DNA of 64,000 bases. Source: Nitrosopumilus sp. Lineage in GTDB: Archaea > Thermoproteota > Nitrososphaeria > Nitrososphaerales > Nitrosopumilaceae. The position numbers were made by a program, and so were the translations under genes. Position 1 is the stretch's first letter. The number at the start of each line of letters is the position of its first letter. The DNA lies in the NCBI GenBank assembly GCA_965204345.1, contig OZ241981.1, forward strand, positions 1,952,001 through 2,016,000, written 5' to 3'. The notes under the pieces were generated by a model. It saw nothing but the letters and a program-made list of their open reading frames with translations. It was not told the origin of the DNA and did no database searches. Shown here in pieces: positions 12,197-64,000 of this stretch.

Positions 12197-12355
12197 CGGT
12201 TCTGGTAAATTTTGGCGCTTCATGCCACAAATCACAGATTTGGAAAGTCTGAACTGCACTGGGATTTTTTGATGACTAGATAGTTTAAGAAAATCATCTC
12301 TTGGCAATTTACTGTTAAATTTCAGTGAACAGATCATCAGAATTTATCAGAACCG
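12197..12355 (+). mobile_element. Full-length MITE-like repeat with 18-bp imperfect terminal inverted repeats
   Basis: Left end cggttctggtaaattttg vs reverse complement of right end cggttctgataaattctg (16/18); related copies at 421, 13210, 19775 and 21405. Confidence 0.75.
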
Positions 12356-12527
12356 AACCACGTATGCGTATGTCAGTGATCCGACTGTGACAAAAAGCAT
12401 GTCTGTGCCAGTCACTGCAGCCCTTTTGACAAATTGTTGTTTTGACATGGACTCGTGCGAGTTTCGGAAAATTATTCCTCATCAGCGTGCCTTTCTAGTT
12501 GAGTTATATTGGTAGAATGATGTGATG

Positions 12528-12598
12528 TAGTGAGGGCTAAGGGTATACTGTCATCATATTGATGTTCAGAATGAGTGGATCTTACATGGCCCTCACTA
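12528..12598 (-). ncRNA. Putative box C/D-like guide RNA unit 1 (degenerate C box)
   Basis: Minus strand: TAGTGAGGGC-C-ATGTAAGA-TCCACTCATT-CTGA-ACATCAAT-ATGATGA-CAGTATACC-CTTA-GCCCTCACTA. Confidence 0.4.
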
Positions 12599-12706
12599 TC
12601 CAGTATCTGGCTGTCTTGAAAAATTGCGCATGGTCTGAGTTTCAGGAATCAACCCTGTATTCCCAGATGCCTTCTAGTTGAGTTATATTGGTAGAATGAT
12701 GTGATG

Positions 12707-12777
12707 TAGTGAGGGCTAAGGGTATACTGTCATCATATTGATGTTCAGATCAACGCCGACTCATCATGCCCTCACTA
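12707..12777 (-). ncRNA. Putative box C/D-like guide RNA unit 2
   Basis: Minus strand: TAGTGAGGGC-ATGATGA-GTCGGCGTTGAT-CTGA-ACATCAAT-ATGATGA-CAGTATACC-CTTA-GCCCTCACTA. Perfect C, D' and C' boxes, variant D box, 10-bp terminal stem. Confidence 0.55.
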
Positions 12778-13209: not shown

Positions 13210-13362
13210 GGTTCAGGCAAATTCTGATGAACTGATCACTGGAATTTAACAGTAAATCGCATAGATGATTTTCTTAAACTATCCAGTCATCAAAAAATCC
13301 CAAAAAAGTGCGGTTCAGAGATTGCACTGATTTACGGCACAGGCCACCAATTTACCATAGCC
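13210..13362 (-). mobile_element. MITE-like repeat copy in inverted orientation
   Basis: Reverse complement contains gggattttttgatgactggatagtttaagaaaatcatct...catcagaatttgcctgaacc, matching 12197-12355. Confidence 0.8.
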
Positions 13363-21404: not shown

Positions 21405-21550
21405 CGGTTCTGGTACATTCTGGCGTTCCATGCCATAAATTCACAGATTTAGCTGTCTCTGAAAATACTTTGGGAATTTTTTTCTGAGTATTACCTCTTG
21501 GTAATTTTTAAGAGAATCATCTTTTGGCAATTTGCTGCTAAATTCCGATG
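21405..21550 (+). mobile_element. 5' part of the MITE-like repeat (lacks right TIR)
   Basis: cggttctggtacattctggcgttccatgccataaattcacagattt...ttaagagaatcatcttttggcaattt aligns with 12197-12325. Confidence 0.75.
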
Positions 21551-52303: not shown

Positions 52304-53125
52304 TTAGATTTTTATCAGTTTTCTGAATTCATCACTTGAGAGTAGTTTTGCAAACATTGGTTCTGCCTGTGCCCATTTTCTGATCATTTTAGGATTTTTT
52401 GATATTGATTGTTTTAACAATTTCAGTGCTTCTGGATGCCTTCCTAATGCCGCACTACTTCTTGATTTGGCGTAAATGACATTTACATTGTCCTTATGTT
52501 TTGATAATATTTGATCAAAAATCCCAATTGCCTTTTCATGTTTTTCTAGTTCTGCCAATTCAATTCCTTTATGAAACCATGCATCCATGTGACCGGGATG
52601 ATCTTTGTGTACTTTATCAAAACAATTTAATGATTCTTCATGTTTTTTTAATTTACCTAGAATAATTCCTTTGTAAAACAACGCATTTGGTTTTCTTGGT
52701 TCAATTGTAATTGCTTTTTCTAAAACTTTTATCGCTTCTTTGTGTTCTTGTAGTTTATCCAGTAACACACCCTTGTTAAAATATGATGCAGCATTTTTTG
52801 GATCTGCCTCAATTGCTTTATCATAACATTCTGCAGCAGCTTGAATATTGCCATTTTCTGCCATTGCAATTCCTTTATTATTCCATGCTTGAGAATCTTT
52901 TGGCTTTACCTCTAATAATATGTCAAAACAAGTGATTGCATCACTGTATTTTTTTATCTGATTTAATGCCAAACCTTTGTTGAATAACGCTCCTGTGTTC
53001 TTTGCATCTTGTTTTAGAACCTTGTTAAATGATGATATTGCTCCCTTTGGTTGGTTTTTTTCCATTAGTGACATTGCTTCATATATTAAATCATCTGGAT
53101 TTTTTTTGGAACTAAATAATCCCAT
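52304..53125 (-). CDS. Tetratricopeptide repeat protein
   Basis: Repeated AW.NKG..L...A...YDKAI..DP units. Confidence 0.93.
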   Translation of the reverse strand: MGLFSSKKNPDDLIYEAMSLMEKNQPKGAISSFNKVLKQDAKNTGALFNKGLALNQIKKYSDAITCFDILLEVKPKDSQAWNNKGIAMAENGNIQAAAECYDKAIEADPKNAASYFNKGVLLDKLQEHKEAIKVLEKAITIEPRKPNALFYKGIILGKLKKHEESLNCFDKVHKDHPGHMDAWFHKGIELAELEKHEKAIGIFDQILSKHKDNVNVIYAKSRSSAALGRHPEALKLLKQSISKNPKMIRKWAQAEPMFAKLLSSDEFRKLIKI

Positions 53126-53402: not shown

Positions 53403-53621
53403 ATGTTCATAGATGGCATCAGGATTCTTTTATTTGAGAGTGTATTGATTTCATTATTAATTTTTGTCTGTTCGGAATTTATTTTATTATGTTATTTTGA
53501 AACCGTGTGGCAGGTTGTTGGATTGTTAATGGCACTGTTCATATCATCATCAATCTTGCAGGCAATATTTTTGCTCATCGTATATGTTATGATTTATAAA
53601 AAAACAAAAAAAGAGATCTGA
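53403..53621 (+). CDS. Small two-TM protein; only its 3' end is repeated in the array
   Basis: Hydrophobic 72-aa ORF spanning the array left boundary at 53539. Confidence 0.55.
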   Translation: MFIDGIRILLFESVLISLLIFVCSEFILLCYFETVWQVVGLLMALFISSSILQAIFLLIVYVMIYKKTKKEI

Positions 53622-53636
53622 TAGGGTGAGAGATAG

Positions 53637-54389
53637 ATGGCCTATACTAAAATAATGTCTTGTTTTGTGATGGTCTGGTTTGTTGTCGTTGTTATTAGCA
53701 TTATTGTTGTTCAACCCAGTTATGCGAATCTTCAAGATAATCTGATAGGAGGCAGTGATTTTGAAAAGTTAAAAATTCTTGAATATGACAAGAATCGCTT
53801 TGGCCTGTTTGGCTCTGATCAGTTAAAATGGATCATAAACTGGAATGGTGAGAGTTGGCAAGAGGAAACCCTGTTTGTTCAAGCAAGTAGCACTGCGTCC
53901 AAAATAACGTTTCTTGCCAGTGGAACTGACCGTCTTCATTTGGATGATATTGCACTGTCAAAAACATCGCTTGGGAAAAATTCAAACGAGTTTGCATTGG
54001 ATTTAATTCCTCAAAAAAGAGCTATTACAAACGAGCAAGATGCGCCGTTTCTGCTTGAGATAAACCCGATCTCTTTGGATTCCACCTCTGCTGCTGCCAC
54101 TCCCATGATACAACTAGACGTTGTTTATGATCAAAATGATTTCAAAGAAATATCCGTAAATCCCGACAGCGGGATTCCCCCATTCAAATCAGTCATTTTG
54201 GTCCATCCAGCACAAACTTCTGGAATAAAAAACTTCACCATACTTTCGCAGGATAGTCTTGATAATAATGTACAGGTTGTGGGAACCGTTGAAATACAAG
54301 AACCAAAAAACACATTTCTCTGGAATTTAATCATTGGCATACTGACAATTTTATTGGCATTGGGACTGTTCAAAGTAATCAAGAAATAA
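53637..54389 (+). CDS. Secreted, C-terminally anchored hypothetical protein, copy 1
   Basis: Signal peptide, beta-rich body, TM plus KVIKK. Confidence 0.8.
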   Translation: MAYTKIMSCFVMVWFVVVVISIIVVQPSYANLQDNLIGGSDFEKLKILEYDKNRFGLFGSDQLKWIINWNGESWQEETLFVQASSTASKITFLASGTDRLHLDDIALSKTSLGKNSNEFALDLIPQKRAITNEQDAPFLLEINPISLDSTSAAATPMIQLDVVYDQNDFKEISVNPDSGIPPFKSVILVHPAQTSGIKNFTILSQDSLDNNVQVVGTVEIQEPKNTFLWNLIIGILTILLALGLFKVIKK

Positions 54390-54422
54390 AAATTCTTCTG
54401 TATTGGCAGCGCGTACTGCTGT

Positions 54423-57041
54423 CTATGTTTTCACTTTGAATAAGGCAGCTTCACCTTCTCTAATGACTAATTGCAATTGAGGATTATCCTCAAAGAGGGC
54501 TATTCGTTCAGAAGTACTTATGTGAAGAGCTGGAAATACTGGTAGAAGCTGGTTCACATCCGATTGTTGTCTGTCTTGCGGATCACCGCCAGTAATTAAC
54601 ACATATTCAATACCATACTTGTCCAATATTTCCATCATTTTCATGTCTCCGGGATGGTGTAATACAAGGTTAGCCTCATATGCTCTCTCTTTTAGAAATG
54701 TATCATCTAACACAACACTACTGTGTATTCTTCTCCACATTTCTCTGTTATTAGTTATATCAAATATCTTTATTGATGAAAGCCACATTCCTTCACCAGT
54801 TCTATCCTCAAGGATGGTTGTATTTGAATCAAGATTGTCATTCATCCAACCCATCACTTTTAATTCATTGCTTGTAGGTAAATATCCTAGCAAATTATCT
54901 TTATACTCGTATGAAATATGAGTATCAAGACTTGGAGTTAGTGCAATAAAAACCAACGAGTAAATCGCTATGGACAAGACTGATTTTGAACGTAATGAAA
55001 TTTCGCGTTTGTTAAACCTAGTTGCAAGTTTATCAAAAATATCAACCCCTGCTAAAATTATTCCTATTTGAGAGATGATAGCTCCTAGTAAAACAAGTCT
55101 GTCAGGATACATAAACCAGAAAAGATTCTCGTAAATTACTTTATTTGATATTGTTCCAAACACTAGGGAAAACATTACAATCAAAAATAAACTAAACTCT
55201 CGATTGGATTTAAACAACCAAATTGCAGAAAGAACCCCCCCTAGTAATAAAATAAAATAAGGAAAATATATAGAATCCATGTTGTATATGTCTGCATCCT
55301 CTAATAATAGCCAAAAATAGTCGATAAGAATATTATTTATCTTCTGCAATTCATCTGCAAAATAAACCAGTGATGCGCCTGATGTTACTACCAAAATAAT
55401 TAACGCCAATCGTAAAATAAGCATATAGTTTTTTATCTTAAATTTCCCGACTCGCAGTCCATTTGTTTTGGAGTTTATGGGGGATTTTAAGAGTATTAAT
55501 TTAATAATTATAAACAAAACAAAGGGAACGATCATGATAGTATATGTGATAAATATTACAACTGACAATAGCGAATAAATAATAAAATTAGAATTATTTT
55601 TATTATTAATAACTATGCTGATAAAAAGCAAAAGTATGCAAGTAAATGTAGCAAATACAAAAGTTCCTGTAGATAATGGAGTAAGTAGTACATCATGAGA
55701 AATTACAAAATAACCTACTTCATTTCCTGGAATAAAAAACAATGCTCCAAATGCAATGCTTGCCAAGTAATACGATTTGGTTTTTTTGTATATTATTGAA
55801 AAACAGATGGGCGGCAAGAGTGCAACAATTGTTACTGTGACGGCATATTGGGATATTGGCAGCATGACGTTTGTAATCAAAGAAAAAAATGCAGTCAAAG
55901 CATGAAATCCCTGAGGATAAACTGTCATTCCATATGGCAAATCAAAAAATGGCCAATTATTGTTAAACACACTCGTATGATACATTATAAATTGCGAAGC
56001 GTGACCATGGTATTGCGAATCAAAAACAGGCGGCCAGTTCATATTTTCTGCAATTATAAAAAAGTGAGTCAGTGACAGAATTATGAGTATGCCTGCAATC
56101 AGATTTGGAAGAACTTTTTCATTTTTAATTTCAGACAGAATTTTAGCTCTGTCTCTGAAAATCAAGTAAGAGCCAACCATCATAAACGAAAAGAAGGCTG
56201 TCAGAACAGTAGTCTGTGTAAAGTGAAGCATTGCCAGAAAAATCGCCAAAAGAATCAGCAATACCAAGCCAAAGGCAGAGTACAGGGAAAAATTAATTAC
56301 AAATCCAAAATTCAGCTTGTATCGGATAATTTTTAATAGAAAATACCCCATAATAACTGAAGACGACAAATAAACAATCATGGATGTCAGTATCTCGTTT
56401 TTAAAATTCGACCTGTCTGAACCTATTTTGCTGTCAAATAATTCAGGCACTACCTCTGCATCTGTAATGAGCGTGGTCTGGGAATAAGAGTCCCCTCCGT
56501 TTACAAATGTAATTCTAAGAGACTTGACATTGCCAGGATCAAAGCCAGGTTTATTTTGAACGTAATTGGAGGGATCTACAATAACTTTTGCCCAAGTGCC
56601 ATCTTCTAAACCAAACCACTGTGGCAAATTCCAAAAAGGACGCTGTATATCATTTGCATCAACCATGATCAAAAATGCATTAGCCCTCCATGCTTCATGA
56701 GTACTTTTATTTATTCCAGCCACATTTTCAAGATTCATCCAAAATCGTAATCCTTGGCCCGTAGACAGATCCACAGGCTTGGAAAAACGGCACTCAAGAA
56801 CTGCTGTTTCTGTGGCATCACTGCTGGAAAAATAACTATAGGTAAAATCGCTATCATCATCATCATCATCACTATTCATATTCAGAGATTTGTCCAAAAA
56901 ACTAGACTCTGAATCCCACGTACAGTTATTCTCACTGTCAGACTCGAAAACATAAAAATCATGAAGATTTTCGGCAAATACAATTGATGGCAACGCACAT
57001 AATACCAACAAAACAAGTGCTATCCCACTAACAAGAAACAA
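54423..57041 (-). CDS. GT-C-fold (DUF6541/STT3-like) membrane protein with N-terminal CBM11/CIA30-like domain, copy 1 (allele A)
   Basis: Signal peptide; GLRFWM...WAKVIV...FDPGNVKSLRITF beta domain; first-loop D.QYH and YPQGFH; many TMs; C-terminal ELKVMGWM..N and LDKYGIEYVLI. Confidence 0.65.
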   Translation of the reverse strand: MFLVSGIALVLLVLCALPSIVFAENLHDFYVFESDSENNCTWDSESSFLDKSLNMNSDDDDDDSDFTYSYFSSSDATETAVLECRFSKPVDLSTGQGLRFWMNLENVAGINKSTHEAWRANAFLIMVDANDIQRPFWNLPQWFGLEDGTWAKVIVDPSNYVQNKPGFDPGNVKSLRITFVNGGDSYSQTTLITDAEVVPELFDSKIGSDRSNFKNEILTSMIVYLSSSVIMGYFLLKIIRYKLNFGFVINFSLYSAFGLVLLILLAIFLAMLHFTQTTVLTAFFSFMMVGSYLIFRDRAKILSEIKNEKVLPNLIAGILIILSLTHFFIIAENMNWPPVFDSQYHGHASQFIMYHTSVFNNNWPFFDLPYGMTVYPQGFHALTAFFSLITNVMLPISQYAVTVTIVALLPPICFSIIYKKTKSYYLASIAFGALFFIPGNEVGYFVISHDVLLTPLSTGTFVFATFTCILLLFISIVINNKNNSNFIIYSLLSVVIFITYTIMIVPFVLFIIIKLILLKSPINSKTNGLRVGKFKIKNYMLILRLALIILVVTSGASLVYFADELQKINNILIDYFWLLLEDADIYNMDSIYFPYFILLLGGVLSAIWLFKSNREFSLFLIVMFSLVFGTISNKVIYENLFWFMYPDRLVLLGAIISQIGIILAGVDIFDKLATRFNKREISLRSKSVLSIAIYSLVFIALTPSLDTHISYEYKDNLLGYLPTSNELKVMGWMNDNLDSNTTILEDRTGEGMWLSSIKIFDITNNREMWRRIHSSVVLDDTFLKERAYEANLVLHHPGDMKMMEILDKYGIEYVLITGGDPQDRQQSDVNQLLPVFPALHISTSERIALFEDNPQLQLVIREGEAALFKVKT

Positions 57042-57245
57042 CAGATTCTAAAATTTTCTTGTTTATTTATCTTTTCTTTATAAGATTAGGAATTTTGTTT
57101 TTTAATAAAAAATTACGTGGAAGATTTTTGATTGTCAATAGCATGGGTCATATCATCATCAATCTTGCAGGCAATATTTTTGCTCATCGTATATGTTATG
57201 ATTTATAAAAAAACAAAAAAAGAGATCTGATAGGGTGAGAGATAG

Positions 57246-57998
57246 ATGGCCTATACTAAAATAATGTCTTGTTTTGTGATGGTCTGGTTTGTTGTCGTTG
57301 TTATTAGCATTATTGTTGTTCAACCCAGTTATGCGAATCTTCAAGATAATCTGATAGGAGGCAGTGATTTTGAAAAGTTAAAAATTCTTGAATATGACAA
57401 GAATCGCTTTGGCCTGTTTGGCTCTGATCAGTTAAAATGGATCATAAACTGGAATGGTGAGAGTTGGCAAGAGGAAACCCTGTTTGTTCAAGCAAGTAGC
57501 ACTGCGTCCAAAATAACGTTTCTTGCCAGTGGAACTGACCGTCTTCATTTGGATGATATTGCACTGTCAAAAACATCGCTTGGGAAAAATTCAAACGAGT
57601 TTGCATTGGATTTAATTCCTCAAAAAAGAGCTATTACAAACGAGCAAGATGCGCCGTTTCTGCTTGAGATAAACCCGATCTCTTTGGATTCCACCTCTGC
57701 TGCTGCCACTCCCATGATACAACTAGACGTTGTTTATGAGCAAAATGATTTCAAAGAAATATCCGTAAATCCCGACAGCGGGATTCCCCCATTCAAATCA
57801 GTCATTTTGGTCCATCCAGCACAAACTTCTGGAATAAAAAACTTCACCATACTTTCGCAGGATAGTCTTGATAATAATGTACAGGTTGTGGGAACCGTTG
57901 AAATACAAGAACCAAAAAACACATTTCTCTGGAATTTAATCATTGGCATACTGACAATTTTATTGGCATTGGGACTGTTCAAAGTAATCAAGAAATAA
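57246..57998 (+). CDS. Secreted anchored hypothetical protein, copy 2
   Basis: Identical to copy 1 except VYDQ to VYEQ. Confidence 0.8.
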   Translation: MAYTKIMSCFVMVWFVVVVISIIVVQPSYANLQDNLIGGSDFEKLKILEYDKNRFGLFGSDQLKWIINWNGESWQEETLFVQASSTASKITFLASGTDRLHLDDIALSKTSLGKNSNEFALDLIPQKRAITNEQDAPFLLEINPISLDSTSAAATPMIQLDVVYEQNDFKEISVNPDSGIPPFKSVILVHPAQTSGIKNFTILSQDSLDNNVQVVGTVEIQEPKNTFLWNLIIGILTILLALGLFKVIKK

Positions 57999-58031
57999 AA
58001 ATTCTTCTGTATTGGCAGCGCGTACTGCTGT

Positions 58032-60650
58032 CTATGTTTTCACTTTGAATAAGGCAGCTTCACCTTCTCTAATGACTAATTGCAATTGAGGATTATCCTC
58101 AAAGAGGGCTATTCGTTCAGAAGTACTTATGTGAAGAGCTGGAAATACTGGTAGAAGATAGTACACACTAGAGGGGTGTCTGTCTTGCGTATAACCGCCA
58201 GTAATCAACACATATTCAATACCATACTTGTCCAATATTTCCATCATTTTCATGTCTCCGGGATGGTGTAATACAAGGTTAGCCTCATATGCTCTCTCTT
58301 TTAGAAATGTATCATCTAACACAACACTACTGTGTATTTTTCTCCACATTTCTCTGTTATTAGTTATATCAAATATCTTTATTGATGAAAGCCACATTCC
58401 TTCAGTAGTTCTATCCTGAAGGATGGTTGTATTTGAATCAAGATTGTCATTCATCCAACCCATCACTTTTAATTCATTGCTTGTAGGTAAATATCCTAGC
58501 AAACCATCGTCATACTCGTATGAAATATGAGTATCAAGACTTGGAATTAGTGCAATAAAAACCAACGAGCAAATCGCTATGGACAAGACTGATTTTGAAC
58601 GTAATGAAATTTCGCGTTTGTTAAACCTAGTTGCAAGTTTATCAAAAATATCAACCCCTGCTAAAATTATTCCTATTTGAGAGATGATAGCTCCTAGTAA
58701 AACAAGTCTGTCAGGATACATAAACCAGAAAAGATTTTCAAAAATTACTTTATTTGATATTGTTCCAAACACTAGGGAAAACATTACAATCAAAAATAAA
58801 CTAAACTCTCGATTGGATTTAAACAACCAAGTTGCAGAAAGAACCCCCCCTAGTAATAAAATAAAATAAGGAAAATATATAGAATCTATGTTGTATATGT
58901 CCATCTCTTCGAATAATAGCCAAAAATAGTCGATAGGAAGATTATGTTTCTTCTGCAATTCATCTGCAAAATAAACCAGTGATGCGCCTGATGTTACTAC
59001 CAAAATAATTAACGCCAATCGTAAAATAAGCATATAGTTTTTTATCTTAAATTTCCCGACTCGCAGTCCATTTGTTTTGGAGTTTATGGGGGATTTTAAG
59101 AGTATTAATTTAATAATTATAAACAAAACAAAGGGAACGATCATGATAGTATATGTGATAAATATTACAACTGACAATAGCGAATAAATAATAAAATTAG
59201 AATTATTTTTATTATTAATAACTATGCTGATAAAAAGCAAAAGTATGCAAGTAAATGTAGCAAATACAAAAGTTCCTGTAGAGAATATAGTAAGTAGTAC
59301 ATCATGAGAAATTACAAAATAACCTAATTCATTTCCTGGAATAAAAAACAATGCTCCAAATGCAATGCTTGCCAAGTAATACGATTTGGTTTTTTTGTAT
59401 ATTATTGAAAAACAGATGGGCGGCAAGAGTGCAACAATTGTTACTGTGACGGCATATTGGGATATTGGCAGCATGACGTTTGTAATCAAAGAAAAAAATG
59501 CAGTCAAAGCATGAAATCCCTGAGGATAAACTGTCATTCCATATGGCAAATCAAAAAATGGCCAATTATTGTTAAACACACTCGTATGATACATTATAAA
59601 TTGCGAAGCGTGACCATGGTATTGCGGATCAAAAACAGGCGGCCAGTTCATATTTTCTGCAATTATAAAAAAGTGAGTCAGTGACAGAATTATGAGTATG
59701 CCTGCAATCAGATTTGGAAGAACTTTTTCATTTTTAATTTCAGACAGAATTTTAGCTCTGTCTCTGAAAATCAAGTAAGAGCCAACCATCATAAACGAAA
59801 AGAAGGCTGTCAGAACAGTAGTCTGTGTAAAGTGAAGCATTGCCAGAAAAATCGCCAAAAGAATCAGCAATACCAAGCCAAAGGCAGAGTACAGGGAAAA
59901 ATTAATTACAAATCCAAAATTCAGCTTGTATCGGATAATTTTTAATAGAAAATACCCCATAATAACTGAAGACGACAAATAAACAATCATGGATGTCAGT
60001 ATCTCGTTTTTAAAATTCGACCTGTCTGAACCTATTTTGCTGTCAAATAATCCAGGCACTACCTCTGCATCTGTAATGAGCGTGGTCTGGGAATAAGAGT
60101 CCCCTCCGTTTACAAATGTAATTCTAAGAGACTTGACATTGCCAGGATCAAAGCCAGGTTTATTTTGAACGTAATTGGAGGGATCTACAATAACTTTTGC
60201 CCAAGTGCCATCTTCTAAACCAAACCACTGTGGCAAATTCCAAAAAGGACGCTGTATATCATTTGCATCAACCATGATCAAAAATGCATTAGCCCTCCAT
60301 GCTTCATGAGTACTTTTATTTATTCCAGCCACATTTTCAAGATTCATCCAAAATCGTAATCCTTGGCCCGTAGACAGATCCACAGGCTTGGAAAAACGGC
60401 ACTCAAGAACTGCTGTTTCTGTGGCATCACTGCTGGAAAAATAACTATAGGTAAAATCGCTATCATCATCATCATCATCACTATTCATATTCAGAGATTT
60501 GTCCAAAAAACTAGACTCTGAATCCCACGTACAGTTATTCTCACTGTCAGACTCGAAAACATAAAAATCATGAAGATTTTCGGCAAATACAATTGATGGC
60601 AACGCACATAATACCAACAAAACAAGTGCTATCCCACTAACAAGAAACAA
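58032..60650 (-). CDS. GT-C-like membrane protein, copy 2 (divergent allele B)
   Basis: Same length as copy 1, about 29 aa replacements by my count. Confidence 0.65.
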   Translation of the reverse strand: MFLVSGIALVLLVLCALPSIVFAENLHDFYVFESDSENNCTWDSESSFLDKSLNMNSDDDDDDSDFTYSYFSSSDATETAVLECRFSKPVDLSTGQGLRFWMNLENVAGINKSTHEAWRANAFLIMVDANDIQRPFWNLPQWFGLEDGTWAKVIVDPSNYVQNKPGFDPGNVKSLRITFVNGGDSYSQTTLITDAEVVPGLFDSKIGSDRSNFKNEILTSMIVYLSSSVIMGYFLLKIIRYKLNFGFVINFSLYSAFGLVLLILLAIFLAMLHFTQTTVLTAFFSFMMVGSYLIFRDRAKILSEIKNEKVLPNLIAGILIILSLTHFFIIAENMNWPPVFDPQYHGHASQFIMYHTSVFNNNWPFFDLPYGMTVYPQGFHALTAFFSLITNVMLPISQYAVTVTIVALLPPICFSIIYKKTKSYYLASIAFGALFFIPGNELGYFVISHDVLLTIFSTGTFVFATFTCILLLFISIVINNKNNSNFIIYSLLSVVIFITYTIMIVPFVLFIIIKLILLKSPINSKTNGLRVGKFKIKNYMLILRLALIILVVTSGASLVYFADELQKKHNLPIDYFWLLFEEMDIYNIDSIYFPYFILLLGGVLSATWLFKSNREFSLFLIVMFSLVFGTISNKVIFENLFWFMYPDRLVLLGAIISQIGIILAGVDIFDKLATRFNKREISLRSKSVLSIAICSLVFIALIPSLDTHISYEYDDGLLGYLPTSNELKVMGWMNDNLDSNTTILQDRTTEGMWLSSIKIFDITNNREMWRKIHSSVVLDDTFLKERAYEANLVLHHPGDMKMMEILDKYGIEYVLITGGYTQDRHPSSVYYLLPVFPALHISTSERIALFEDNPQLQLVIREGEAALFKVKT

Positions 60651-60854
60651 CAGATTCTAAAATTTTCTTGTTTATTTATCTTTTCTTTATAAGATTAGGA
60701 ATTTTGTTTTTTAATAAAAAATTACGTGGAAGATTTTTGATTGTCAATAGCATGGGTCATATCATCATCAATCTTGCAGGCAATATTTTTGCTCATCGTA
60801 TATGTTATGATTTATAAAAAAACAAAAAAAGAGATCTGATAGGGTGAGAGATAG

Positions 60855-61607
60855 ATGGCCTATACTAAAATAATGTCTTGTTTTGTGATGGTCTGGTTTG
60901 TTGTCGTTGTTATTAGCATTATTGTTGTTCAACCCAGTTATGCGAATCTTCAAGATAATCTGATAGGAGGCAGTGATTTTGAAAAGTTAAAAATTCTTGA
61001 ATATGACAAGAATCGCTTTGGCCTGTTTGGCTCTGATCAGTTAAAATGGATCATAAACTGGAATGGTGAGAGTTGGCAAGAGGAAACCCTGTTTGTTCAA
61101 GCAAGTAGCACTGCGTCCAAAATAACGTTTCTTGCCAGTGGAACTGACCGTCTTCATTTGGATGATATTGCACTGTCAAAAACATCGCTTGGGAAAAATT
61201 CAAACGAGTTTGCATTGGATTTAATTCCTCAAAAAAGAGCTATTACAAACGAGCAAGATGCGCCGTTTCTGCTTGAGATAAACCCGATCTCTTTGGATTC
61301 CACCTCTGCTGCTGCCACTCCCATGATACAACTAGACGTTGTTTATGATCAAAATGATTTCAAAGAAATATCCGTAAATCCCGACAGCGGGATTCCCCCA
61401 TTCAAATCAGTCATTTTGGTCCATCCAGCACAAACTTCTGGAATAAAAAACTTCACCATACTTTCGCAGGATAGTCTTGATAATAATGTACAGGTTGTGG
61501 GAACCGTTGAAATACAAGAACCAAAAAACACATTTCTCTGGAATTTAATCATTGGCATACTGACAATTTTATTGGCATTGGGACTGTTCAAAGTAATCAA
61601 GAAATAA
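60855..61607 (+). CDS. Secreted anchored hypothetical protein, copy 3
   Basis: Protein identical to copy 1. Confidence 0.8.
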   Translation: MAYTKIMSCFVMVWFVVVVISIIVVQPSYANLQDNLIGGSDFEKLKILEYDKNRFGLFGSDQLKWIINWNGESWQEETLFVQASSTASKITFLASGTDRLHLDDIALSKTSLGKNSNEFALDLIPQKRAITNEQDAPFLLEINPISLDSTSAAATPMIQLDVVYDQNDFKEISVNPDSGIPPFKSVILVHPAQTSGIKNFTILSQDSLDNNVQVVGTVEIQEPKNTFLWNLIIGILTILLALGLFKVIKK

Positions 61608-61640
61608 AAATTCTTCTGTATTGGCAGCGCGTACTGCTGT

Positions 61641-64000
61641 CTATGTTTTCACTTTGAATAAGGCAGCTTCACCTTCTCTAATGACTAATTGCAATTGAGG
61701 ATTATCCTCAAAGAGGGCTATTCGTTCAGAAGTACTTATGTGAAGAGCTGGAAATACTGGTAGAAGCTGGTTCACATCCGATTGTTGTCTGTCTTGCGGA
61801 TCACCGCCAGTAATTAACACATATTCAATACCATACTTGTCCAATATTTCCATCATTTTCATGTCTCCGGGATGGTGTAATACAAGGTTAGCCTCATATG
61901 CTCTCTCTTTTAGAAATGTATCATCTAACACAACACTACTGTGTATTCTTCTCCACATTTCTCTGTTATTAGTTATATCAAATATCTTTATTGATGAAAG
62001 CCACATTCCTTCACCAGTTCTATCCTCAAGGATGGTTGTATTTGAATCAAGATTGTCATTCATCCAACCCATCACTTTTAATTCATTGCTTGTAGGTAAA
62101 TATCCTAGCAAATTATCTTTATACTCGTATGAAATATGAGTATCAAGACTTGGAGTTAGTGCAATAAAAACCAACGAGTAAATCGCTATGGACAAGACTG
62201 ATTTTGAACGTAATGAAATTTCGCGTTTGTTAAACCTAGTTGCAAGTTTATCAAAAATATCAACCCCTGCTAAAATTATTCCTATTTGAGAGATGATAGC
62301 TCCTAGTAAAACAAGTCTGTCAGGATACATAAACCAGAAAAGATTCTCGTAAATTACTTTATTTGATATTGTTCCAAACACTAGGGAAAACATTACAATC
62401 AAAAATAAACTAAACTCTCGATTGGATTTAAACAACCAAATTGCAGAAAGAACCCCCCCTAGTAATAAAATAAAATAAGGAAAATATATAGAATCCATGT
62501 TGTATATGTCTGCATCCTCTAATAATAGCCAAAAATAGTCGATAAGAATATTATTTATCTTCTGCAATTCATCTGCAAAATAAACCAGTGATGCGCCTGA
62601 TGTTACTACCAAAATAATTAACGCCAATCGTAAAATAAGCATATAGTTTTTTATCTTAAATTTCCCGACTCGCAGTCCATTTGTTTTGGAGTTTATGGGG
62701 GATTTTAAGAGTATTAATTTAATAATTATAAACAAAACAAAGGGAACGATCATGATAGTATATGTGATAAATATTACAACTGACAATAGCGAATAAATAA
62801 TAAAATTAGAATTATTTTTATTATTAATAACTATGCTGATAAAAAGCAAAAGTATGCAAGTAAATGTAACAAATACAAAAGTTCCTGTAGATAATGGAGT
62901 AAGTAGTACATCATGAGAAATTACAAAATAACCTACTTCATTTCCTGGAATAAAAAACAATGCTCCAAATGCAATGCTTGCCAAGTAATACGATTTGGTT
63001 TTTTTGTATATTATTGAAAAACAGATGGGCGGCAAGAGTGCAACAATTGTTACTGTGACGGCATATTGGGATATTGGCAGCATGACGTTTGTAATCAAAG
63101 AAAAAAATGCAGTCAAAGCATGAAATCCCTGAGGATAAACTGTCATTCCATATGGCAAATCAAAAAATGGCCAATTATTGTTAAACACACTCGTATGATA
63201 CATTATAAATTGCGAAGCGTGACCATGGTATTGCGAATCAAAAACAGGCGGCCAGCTCATATTTTCTGCAATTATAAAAAAGTGAGTCAGTGACAGAATT
63301 ATGAGTATGCCTGCAATCAGATTTGGAAGAACTTTTTCATTTTTAATTTCAGACAGAATTTTAGCTCTGTCTCTGAAAATCAAGTAAGAGCCAACCATCA
63401 TAAACGAAAAGAAGGCTGTCAGAACAGTAGTCTGTGTAAAGTGAAGCATTGCCAGAAAAATCGCCAAAAGAATCAGCAATACCAAGCCAAAGGCAGAGTA
63501 CAGGGAAAAATTAATTACAAATCCAAAATTCAGCTTGTATCGGATAATTTTTAATAGAAAATACCCCATAATAACTGAAGACGACAAATAAACAATCATG
63601 GATGTCAGTATCTCGTTTTTAAAATTCGACCTGTCTGAACCTATTTTGCTGTCAAATAATTCAGGCACTACCTCTGCATCTGTAATGAGCGTGGTCTGGG
63701 AATAAGAGTCCCCTCCGTTTACAAATGTAATTCTAAGAGACTTGACATTGCCAGGATCAAAGCCAGGTTTATTTTGAACGTAATTGGAGGGATCTACAAT
63801 AACTTTTGCCCAAGTGCCATCTTCTAAACCAAACCACTGTGGCAAATTCCAAAAAAGACGCTGTATATCATTTGCATCAACCATGATCAAAAATGCATTA
63901 GCCCTCCATGCTTCAGGAGTACTTTTATTTATTCCAGCCACATTTTCAAGATTCATCCAAAATCGTAATCCTTGGCCCGTAGACAGATCCACAGGCTTGG
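61641..64000 (-). CDS. GT-C-like membrane protein, copy 3 (allele A', 5' end beyond window)
   Basis: Four aa differences from copy 1 in the visible part. Confidence 0.65.
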   Translation of the reverse strand, partial: KPVDLSTGQGLRFWMNLENVAGINKSTPEAWRANAFLIMVDANDIQRLFWNLPQWFGLEDGTWAKVIVDPSNYVQNKPGFDPGNVKSLRITFVNGGDSYSQTTLITDAEVVPELFDSKIGSDRSNFKNEILTSMIVYLSSSVIMGYFLLKIIRYKLNFGFVINFSLYSAFGLVLLILLAIFLAMLHFTQTTVLTAFFSFMMVGSYLIFRDRAKILSEIKNEKVLPNLIAGILIILSLTHFFIIAENMSWPPVFDSQYHGHASQFIMYHTSVFNNNWPFFDLPYGMTVYPQGFHALTAFFSLITNVMLPISQYAVTVTIVALLPPICFSIIYKKTKSYYLASIAFGALFFIPGNEVGYFVISHDVLLTPLSTGTFVFVTFTCILLLFISIVINNKNNSNFIIYSLLSVVIFITYTIMIVPFVLFIIIKLILLKSPINSKTNGLRVGKFKIKNYMLILRLALIILVVTSGASLVYFADELQKINNILIDYFWLLLEDADIYNMDSIYFPYFILLLGGVLSAIWLFKSNREFSLFLIVMFSLVFGTISNKVIYENLFWFMYPDRLVLLGAIISQIGIILAGVDIFDKLATRFNKREISLRSKSVLSIAIYSLVFIALTPSLDTHISYEYKDNLLGYLPTSNELKVMGWMNDNLDSNTTILEDRTGEGMWLSSIKIFDITNNREMWRRIHSSVVLDDTFLKERAYEANLVLHHPGDMKMMEILDKYGIEYVLITGGDPQDRQQSDVNQLLPVFPALHISTSERIALFEDNPQLQLVIREGEAALFKVKT

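Follow-up and report, generated by a model that had tools for sequence, protein, structure and literature searches.

A tandem array of intact, mosaic copies of a predicted GT-C-type transferase gene in a Nitrosopumilus genome

We analysed a 64,000-nucleotide stretch of the genome of an ammonia-oxidizing, sponge-associated archaeon, Nitrosopumilus sp. (assembly GCA_965204345.1, contig OZ241981.1, here C1, positions 1,952,001-2,016,000; "the window") and found that its last 10.5 kb consist of a 3609-bp repeat, each unit of which carries an open reading frame (ORF) for a 250-amino-acid (aa) protein on the + strand and, tail to tail with it on the - strand, one for an 872-aa membrane protein of Pfam family DUF6541. 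The assembly (2.12 Mb in 9 contigs, 99.7% complete, with an archaeal amoA) contains 11 copies of the 872-aa gene, which encode 10 distinct proteins at ~93-100% amino acid identity, and 8 copies of the 250-aa gene; all 11 copies of the former are full length and without stops. The copies are mosaics of one another, their variation is clustered, and amino acid changes among them are in large excess over the background of the genome. We consider it fairly probable that the 872-aa gene is an acquired glycan-decorating transferase of GT-C type that is maintained as an expandable, gene-converting bank of intact alleles.

When the window is compared with itself at an offset of 3609, identity is 0.94-1.00 per 200-nucleotide (nt) bin from position 53601 onward, against a background of ~0.2-0.35 both before 53601 and at offsets 3608 and 3610; BLAST pushes the start of the repeat to 53507. 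The left boundary of the array (53441..53636, +) is a decayed copy of the 3' end of a flippase-like gene, as shown by comparing the DNA to the left of copies A1 and B1 (below), and the exact unit repeat begins within it at 53539. Unit 1 (53539..57147, 3609 bp) has the 250-aa gene at 53637..54389 (+) and 872-aa copy A1 at 54423..57041 (-), the latter identified by Pfam and by its predicted structure. A head-to-head spacer (57042..57245), which includes the tandem joint 57147/57148, precedes unit 2, in which ORF and copy comparison place the 250-aa gene at 57246..57998 (+) and copy A2 at 58032..60650 (-); the same comparison places those of unit 3 at 60855..61607 (+) and 61641..64000 (-), where copy A3 is cut by the window end but is complete in the genome. 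An earlier note on this DNA had estimated about 29 residue differences between the first two copies and about three synonymous changes; the count is 29 amino acid changes (43 nt differences) with four purely synonymous codons rather than three, and the nine multi-base codon changes found include all five that the note had named. Copy A3 differs from A1 by exactly H115P, P135L, N335S and A464V, with zero synonymous changes, as had been read, and the 250-aa gene is indeed nearly invariant, with one varying codon over its 8 copies (165, Glu in unit 2 and Asp in unit 3). The same note described a head-to-tail array of at least three units, which is correct inside the window, but past its end an inversion centre of ~550 bp is followed by five copies (A4-A8) on the other strand. 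Three of the eight array copies thus lie in the window, and three more (B1-B3) lie ~0.6 Mb away at C1:1.398-1.440 Mb, amid insertion sequence (IS)-like elements and glycan genes.

Is this tandem arrangement present in other samples, or could it have been made by the assembler? At least half of the window's words are contained in 13 of 18 listed sequencing runs, which come from four studies, and those of the 13 with a habitat label are sponge metagenomes. One run from each study (X10, X1, X2 and X3) was compared in detail, as contigs and not as reads; at most one of the four studies can be the source of the assembly, and one may be. The depth of the gene backbone, where contig depth is not equivalent to copy number, is ~4.3 (X10), 7.5 (X1), 6 (X2) and 7-9 (X3) times that of the flank at the TPR gene that lies to the left of the array, and 3.4, 4, 4.4-5.2 and 5-7 times, respectively, that of the B1-side flank, whose contigs match window positions 53441-53586 with 14 differences. 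The tandem joint 57147->53539 is listed in three of the four runs at 2.3-5.2 times flank depth and is absent from the X3 listing; an excised circle would give the same joint. All 29 in-gene variants among the 40 of 77 differences that were listed are alleles of the assembly copies, and the samples in which alleles recur date from 2010 to 2024. X1 has, both at full depth but unphased, an A2/A4-type allele at codons 455-456 and a B1/B3-type loop at codons 820-831, a combination not present among the 11 copies. Both the tandem multi-copy state and its alleles are therefore real; the figure of 11 copies, which exceeds the averages of these runs, and their order are those of the assembly. These results contradict the possibility, raised in the earlier note, that strain alleles had been concatenated by the assembler.

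The 872-aa protein scores 57.4 bits against DUF6541 (PF20176; cut-off 29) over model positions 32-645 of 646, and 56% of the members of its nearest Atlas clusters (score 0.96) belong to this family. It is laid out as a signal/anchor, a domain like carbohydrate-binding modules CBM11 and CBM30 (residues ~35-205), a multi-pass core (211-709; a simple hydrophobicity scan of the protein gives 11-12 hydrophobic segments) and a soluble C-terminal domain (710-872). A structure model built from an 83-row alignment (pLDDT 85.5, pTM 0.87) has as its top matches in Foldseek and VIA-align the enzymes STT3, PglB, AftA, DPY19, AglB, ArnT and ALG12, of which STT3/PglB is the best (Z 19.1, root-mean-square deviation (rmsd) 6.6, 477 residues aligned; ArnT has Z 14.4). 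Residues 35-203 match CBM30 (Z 12.6, rmsd 2.9, 147 aligned) and CBM11, and residues 720-871 match the C-terminal domain of AglB-S2 (3vu0; Z 10.2, rmsd 3.3, 125 aligned). The predicted structure thus bears out both the GT-C fold and the CBM fold that had been proposed from the sequence. A search of the PDB by sequence gave no real match for the protein, and no named NCBIfam family was found.

Comparison of its profile with that of the genome's own AglB and 24 relatives gave a probability of 95% (E 4e-8) and placed codons 745-749 on the WWDYG motif, codons 563-590 on the loop that bears SVSE, and codons 820-835 near GGDESKK. E581 and D450 are invariant among the copies, and the columns that relate the protein to the second catalytic acid and to the DxD and DK/MXXI motifs are of low confidence. 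The WWD(YG) motif is not found at its aligned position, which reads EDRTG, QDRTT and the like; because of this, and because a canonical aglB with WWDYG is present elsewhere in the genome, the model points to a GT-C-type transferase that is not an AglB. D341, in the first outer loop, is invariant in a 14-row alignment, in all homolog rows of the 83-row alignment that are ungapped there and in 11/11 copies, and is the putative catalytic acid of that loop. R648 is conserved in 98% of homolog rows, which is compatible with a predicted use of a polyprenyl-phosphate-linked sugar donor.

Relatives of the protein are few. Matches to PF20176 occur in 52 of 250 genomes of the archaeal family, but they were rejected as orthologs, since every one of the 24 loci that were checked has WWDYG and encodes AglB; that DUF6541 cross-matches AglB in this family is independent support for the GT-C relation and a caution for annotation. 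Single-protein searches found no ortholog in 60 relatives, searches of 150 congeners likewise found none, 400 family genomes gave one weak 716-aa match, and 3 of 400 phylum genomes gave one match each (with the best two candidates scored per genome). The 93 homologs outside the genome are distant (22-39% identity); the two of the phylum-genome matches that were inspected sit among ORFs judged from their N-terminal sequences to be glycosyltransferase- or epimerase-like, and the Atlas neighbours fall mostly in archaeal clusters, Bathyarchaeota being commonest among the few with a record. Searches for the locus in genome contigs and metagenome contigs, and in plasmids, found nothing. Because this distribution is patchy, we infer that the gene was acquired laterally.

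Among the 11 copies, 80 of 872 codons vary in residue, and they are not evenly placed: 53 of 280 codons in the outward-facing loops and C-terminal domain vary, against 27 of 592 elsewhere (P 5e-11, with topology read from the secondary structure of the model and regions drawn after the variation was known), and of the 19 sites at which at least three residues occur, 18 face outward. In the CBM-like domain only 7 of 173 codons vary, and only 5 of 76 family-conserved positions do so. D341, H345, D450, E581, R648 and D746 are invariant in 11/11 copies. Five variable places can be named (coordinates in copy A1, all on the - strand). The loop at codons 820-831 (54549..54584) is hypervariable, and the 11 copies have 7 haplotypes over codons 815-831; codons 745-749 (54795..54809; EDRTG, QDRTT, EDRTS and so on) have 5 haplotypes; and the outer helix/loop at codons 566-588 (55278..55346), which falls in the low-confidence columns on the long SVSE-carrying loop, has 8 haplotypes in 11 copies. 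A further variable loop, codons 442-459 (55665..55718), surrounds the invariant D450 and the family-conserved G459, and variable residues at codons 335-342 (56016..56039) flank the family-invariant D341. In solved oligosaccharyltransferases (OSTs) the WWDYG, SVSE-loop and DK-adjacent elements are reported to bind acceptor and metal (PMC7226087), and with low to moderate confidence the sequence alignment suggests that the hot loops match these substrate-binding elements.

The copies group by haplotype in one way at one loop and in another way at the next, a minimum of 21 recombination events is required, and incompatible site pairs rise from 30 of 370 within 30 nt to 773 of 3081 beyond 300 nt. 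The recombination among copies that the earlier note proposed is thus well founded, and the direct-repeat units, mosaic alleles and homogenised backbone fit tandem amplification with gene conversion. Other generators of variation were considered and rejected. A diversity-generating retroelement would need a reverse transcriptase, and PF00078 has no match in this nearly complete genome; there is no adenine bias (consensus bases at variable sites are A 40, G 33, T 32 and C 30), and as template repeat only chance-level matches of 16-17 nt to the hot segments were found outside the copies. Antigenic variation of the pilS/vlsE type uses truncated silent donor cassettes and one expressed locus; no such cassettes were found outside the 11 full-length copies. 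A run of Asp codons, considered as a phase switch, has 6 codons in 11/11 copies.

Two peculiarities of single copies may be recorded here. Copy B3 alone has D647V beside R648, at an Asp that is not family-conserved. Copies A4 (C1:2,017,390-2,017,470) and B1 (C1:1,400,090-1,400,170) have an in-frame 72-bp insertion that adds 24 residues after the CBM-like domain and ahead of the first core helix; it is made of a 36-nt duplication with 2-3 mismatches and 36 new nt, for which the genome offers no other source and which are also present in run X1, and its geometry matches that of the CRISPR array in this genome, whose period is 68-72 nt.

The ratio of nonsynonymous to synonymous changes per site (pN/pS) over the gene is 1.53 (P 0.024), or 1.30 (P 0.12) if the most synonymous paths are taken. 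The genome background is 0.16, from 37 gene pairs on alternative contigs, and 0.32, from 34 pairs of other paralogs (Fisher P for the difference, at most 2e-13). Sites at which every change alters the residue (0-fold) vary more often than 4-fold sites (88/1669 and 9/327, P 0.03), 28 nonsynonymous stand to 2 synonymous changes outside the loops (P 0.016), and codons 1-334 have no synonymous-only change over the 11 copies. A two-class codon model with free synonymous rate, fitted to the 10 distinct copies (A7, identical to A6, was dropped), gave omega 1.9-2.1 for ~10% of codons, with P 0.002-0.011 in all four settings (a single tree or a tree for each of eight segments, and multi-hit changes either allowed or not) and a synonymous rate in the hot class 70-100 times that of the backbone. 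The much larger omega of ~30 from plain site models (M2a against M1a, likelihood ratio statistic 267, or 163 with multi-hit codons) was set aside as inflated, because such models absorb rate variation.

Several results weigh against a strong reading of these data. The dN/dS of copy 1 against copy 2 by the NG86 method is 1.78 with P = 0.11, none of the 55 pairwise dN/dS tests reaches P < 0.05, and among biallelic single-base codons 44 changes are nonsynonymous and 9 synonymous (P 0.20). Within the outward-facing loops, pN/pS is only 1.0-1.2 and 0-fold and 4-fold sites vary alike (P 0.35); synonymous changes cluster in the hot loops too (P 1e-4), and local mutability or block import would also fit this. 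The outward regions were delimited as described above, most AglB-motif columns of the profile alignment are of low confidence, the ~3-9 fold depth in the runs is below the 11 assembled copies, no contig spans the array, and no RNA run found in the run search contains the stretch. Because synonymous changes crowd the same loops, positive selection on the copies is only modest. The diversifying selection that the earlier note had proposed therefore stands as amino acid variation far above background, and its dN/dS check gives omega ~2 in the model that allows for rate variation and ~1 by simple counts within the loops, less than had been stated. Where balancing selection acts together with gene conversion, the expected outcome is a pattern like the present one, a homogenised backbone in which the loops form old, dense blocks of several alleles, though local hypermutability may also be at work.

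In the bank reading, this DUF6541 enzyme, presumably active, would move a lipid-carried sugar to an acceptor at the cell surface, beyond the membrane, and its CBM-like domain would hold that acceptor; the likeliest candidate is a glycan in the S-layer coat or capsule that neighbouring glycan islands build. The gene would have been copied from the flippase-linked locus B1 together with a passenger gene, and the 3609-bp unit amplified as an accordion whose intact alleles are retained as a bank; unequal crossing-over would alter copy number and, together with gene conversion, would keep the backbone uniform and reassort the divergent loop alleles, which would alter specificity. Balancing selection, with modest positive selection, by viruses or host recognition would keep the loop alleles; a cell would hold several specificities, and its surface decoration would be changeable.

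Could the array instead serve simply to make more enzyme? Redundancy would then relax constraint on the loops, divergent blocks would be imported from other strains by recombination, and the alleles would be nearly equivalent in function. The pN/pS of ~1 inside the loops and the very high synonymous rate of the hot class agree with this, as do the identity of A6 and A7, the separation of A1/A3 and of A2/A5 by just four changes each, and further 3.6-kb and inverted duplications in the same island. Relaxed constraint, however, predicts stops, frameshifts and gene-wide variation, yet all copies are intact and the six candidate catalytic residues are invariant; import from diverged strains predicts the background pN/pS of 0.16-0.32; omega stays above 1 when rate variation, multi-hit codons and separate trees for segments are allowed for; and identical alleles recur over the 2010-2024 samples. 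We consider dosage an unlikely explanation.

A bank of OST-like enzymes, in which each copy glycosylates different sequences on the genome's many variable giant surface proteins in the manner of Trypanosoma STT3A/B/C, shares the array mechanism with the bank reading and differs only in substrate. STT3/PglB are the top structural matches, the hot loops align with the acceptor-binding WWDYG, SVSE-loop and DK-adjacent regions of AglB, and the tandem STT3 paralogs of T. brucei are reported to have different acceptor specificities, with the differences located close to the active site (PMC5724017). The missing WWD motif and the separate canonical aglB count against it, and the CBM-like domain and polysaccharide-type neighbours favour a glycan acceptor; a protein acceptor is distinctly improbable. 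A reading in which the outer loops are themselves what is bound, by a virus that uses them as receptor or by a viral or host inhibitor, and diversify to escape this binding, is very improbable: the variation is outward-facing and multi-allelic with large changes of charge and size, but it flanks conserved catalytic candidates, the CBM-like domain is also outward and varies little, and the protein would sit under the S-layer. Because of that low CBM variation, and because the hot loops align with OST substrate-binding elements, the exposed-receptor option of the earlier note is less favoured, whereas its fold, CBM domain, multi-copy tandem state and recombination have held. That the assembler strung together strain alleles of a one- or two-copy gene is barely credible, for although small contigs are alternative haplotypes of C1, C1 ends inside the array island, depth in other runs is below 11 and one of four runs does not list the joint, the joint stands well above flank depth in runs of three studies, unit depth is 3-9 times flank in those of four, and the island is flanked by genes that are neighbours in congeners, with the contig end joining its start across it; assembly error of this kind could still have raised the number of copies or disturbed their order.

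A bolder form of the bank reading, possible but doubtful, likens the locus to the major histocompatibility complex, with an enzyme as its subject. Accordion and gene conversion would reassemble active-site loop alleles, and cells or lineages of a sponge symbiont would show different glycan coats under pressure from viruses or host lectins. The sequences upstream of the copies, which are of three kinds (the array spacer in seven, an inversion-centre type in A4 and B3, and an IS end in B1 and B2), may set which alleles are expressed, and the in-frame CRISPR-like insertion would be a further variant.

The TPR gene (52304..53125, -) is the conserved left neighbour of the island; in 11 of 17 congener loci it lies side by side with the hemL-like gene that is here at C1:1,924 kb. 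Genes of the B island recur at the end of C1, which joins the start of C1. Because the flanking genes adjoin in congeners and the contig end joins its start, the array is placed in a ~35-kb island at a conserved junction of the chromosome, which is probably circular. The B island encodes a flippase-like protein, GT4 and GT2 glycosyltransferases, a sulfotransferase, a GDP-mannose dehydratase, epimerases, a heptose-type kinase, isomerase and phosphatase, and a CBM11 repeat protein. B1 retains the flippase-like gene (Polysacc_synt, 28.7 bits against a cut-off of 28.2) ahead of its 250-aa gene, and since the left edge of the array is a decayed copy of the 3' end of this gene, B1 would appear to be the source of the array copies.

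The 250-aa gene, which points toward the 872-aa gene, is probably a passenger. It is absent beside B2 and B3 and only a 3' fragment of it lies beside A8. Its product has a hydrophobic segment at each terminus and falls in no Pfam family, its structure model is poor (pLDDT 41) and its Atlas matches are below 0.8; its sole outside homolog has 354 aa at 81% identity and includes an internal 106-aa segment that is missing from all array copies.

Other duplications occur in these regions. A second tandem duplication (C1:1,406,292-1,414,371; period 3598 bp, 100% identical) has genes for a GHMP kinase, SIS isomerase and HAD phosphatase of a heptose-type pathway, plus an IS fragment, and a long trinucleotide run (poly-His/Thr/Trp) in an IS remnant at C1:~1,405,900-1,406,400 is far shorter in two neighbouring duplicates. 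Two near-perfect inverted duplications lie in the B island at C1:1,400,142-1,403,760, an IS-like pair between B1 and B2, and at 1,417,229-1,427,490, where a 4.2-kb block encodes a GDP-mannose dehydratase and a 719-aa multi-pass protein with no convincing Pfam family. In the same island a 1689-aa protein (C1:1,427,180-1,432,249, -) has 495-bp tandem repeats and CBM11 matches. A 326-aa epimerase is present in three copies (C1:1,435,946; 1,441,237; 2,037,499) with 4-5 nonsynonymous to 1 synonymous changes, unlike the genome background, in counts too small for testing. Seven of the eight small contigs (C2, C3, C5-C9) are alternative haplotypes of C1 regions at 90-99.8% identity; the sample therefore contained strain variation. 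In the window, short dispersed repeats at 488-565, 12197-12749, 13210-13319 and 21405-21544 (70-140 bp, 73-99% identity, some inverted) are possibly like miniature inverted-repeat transposable elements.

How does the array compare with known systems? Like STT3/PglB/AglB (GT66), AftA, ArnT, DPY19 and ALG12, the protein has a multi-pass core, a soluble C-terminal domain, a conserved first-loop Asp and a conserved Arg; unlike them, it has (E/Q)DRT in place of WWDYG, and it is only ~10-12% identical to them, at rmsd 5-7 Å. PF20176 scores above its cut-off in the Corynebacterium glutamicum control genome, and we take Rv3779 to be a member of DUF6541. Rv3779/Cgp_0658 is described as a membrane transferase with a polyprenyl-phosphate sugar donor in the galactosaminyl decoration of arabinogalactan (PMC3485146), and cgp_0658 is reported among the most enriched resistance hits against phage Cog (bioRxiv 10.1101/2022.05.16.492151). 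The likeness, drawn by description only, is that of membrane transferases with proposed surface-polysaccharide decoration; the actinobacterial enzyme is described as the product of one gene, neither arrayed nor subject to allele shuffling, and acts on an actinobacterial substrate, whereas ours is encoded in many copies. T. brucei TbSTT3A/B/C are reported as tandem genes whose specificity differs near the active site and which form recombination chimeras in lectin-resistant lines (PMC5724017, PMC4351956). They resemble the array as tandem GT-C paralogs, with near-active-site residues setting specificity in Trypanosoma, but they are three genes and a pseudogene for true N-OSTs in a eukaryote, against 11 closely similar copies in an archaeon, of apparently variable number, for a protein without WWD and with an added CBM-like domain. 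Two cultured ammonia-oxidizing archaea are reported to have one aglB each (PMC12153357). Salmonella gtrABC operons for O-antigen glucosylation, reported at 1-4 per genome, laterally acquired and diversified by recombination and gene shuffling (PMC3688519), share surface-glycan decoration, lateral acquisition and recombination with the array, but they are dispersed, deeply diverged and subject to methylation-dependent phase variation, unlike this near-identical tandem bank. Gene amplification with conversion and glycosyltransferase repertoires are thus already known in kind; what sets the array apart is that its copies are near-identical and actively mosaic and that data of four studies support it. 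In literature that mostly excluded subscription journals we found no archaeal array of this kind described, and no mention of DUF6541.

In the recognition of archaeal symbionts by animal hosts, and in their evasion of viruses, surface glycans are a prime suspect; in sponge thaumarchaea, for example, loss of rhamnose synthesis has been proposed (PMC7848895). The locus places DUF6541, by prediction, in the GT-C fold, and it provides a testable handle in the form of ten natural enzyme variants whose differences lie chiefly in the loops that surround a conserved catalytic core. Should these alleles make different products, they would show an archaeon varying its glycans by shuffling a gene array, and would map the specificity determinants of an uncharacterised GT-C family.

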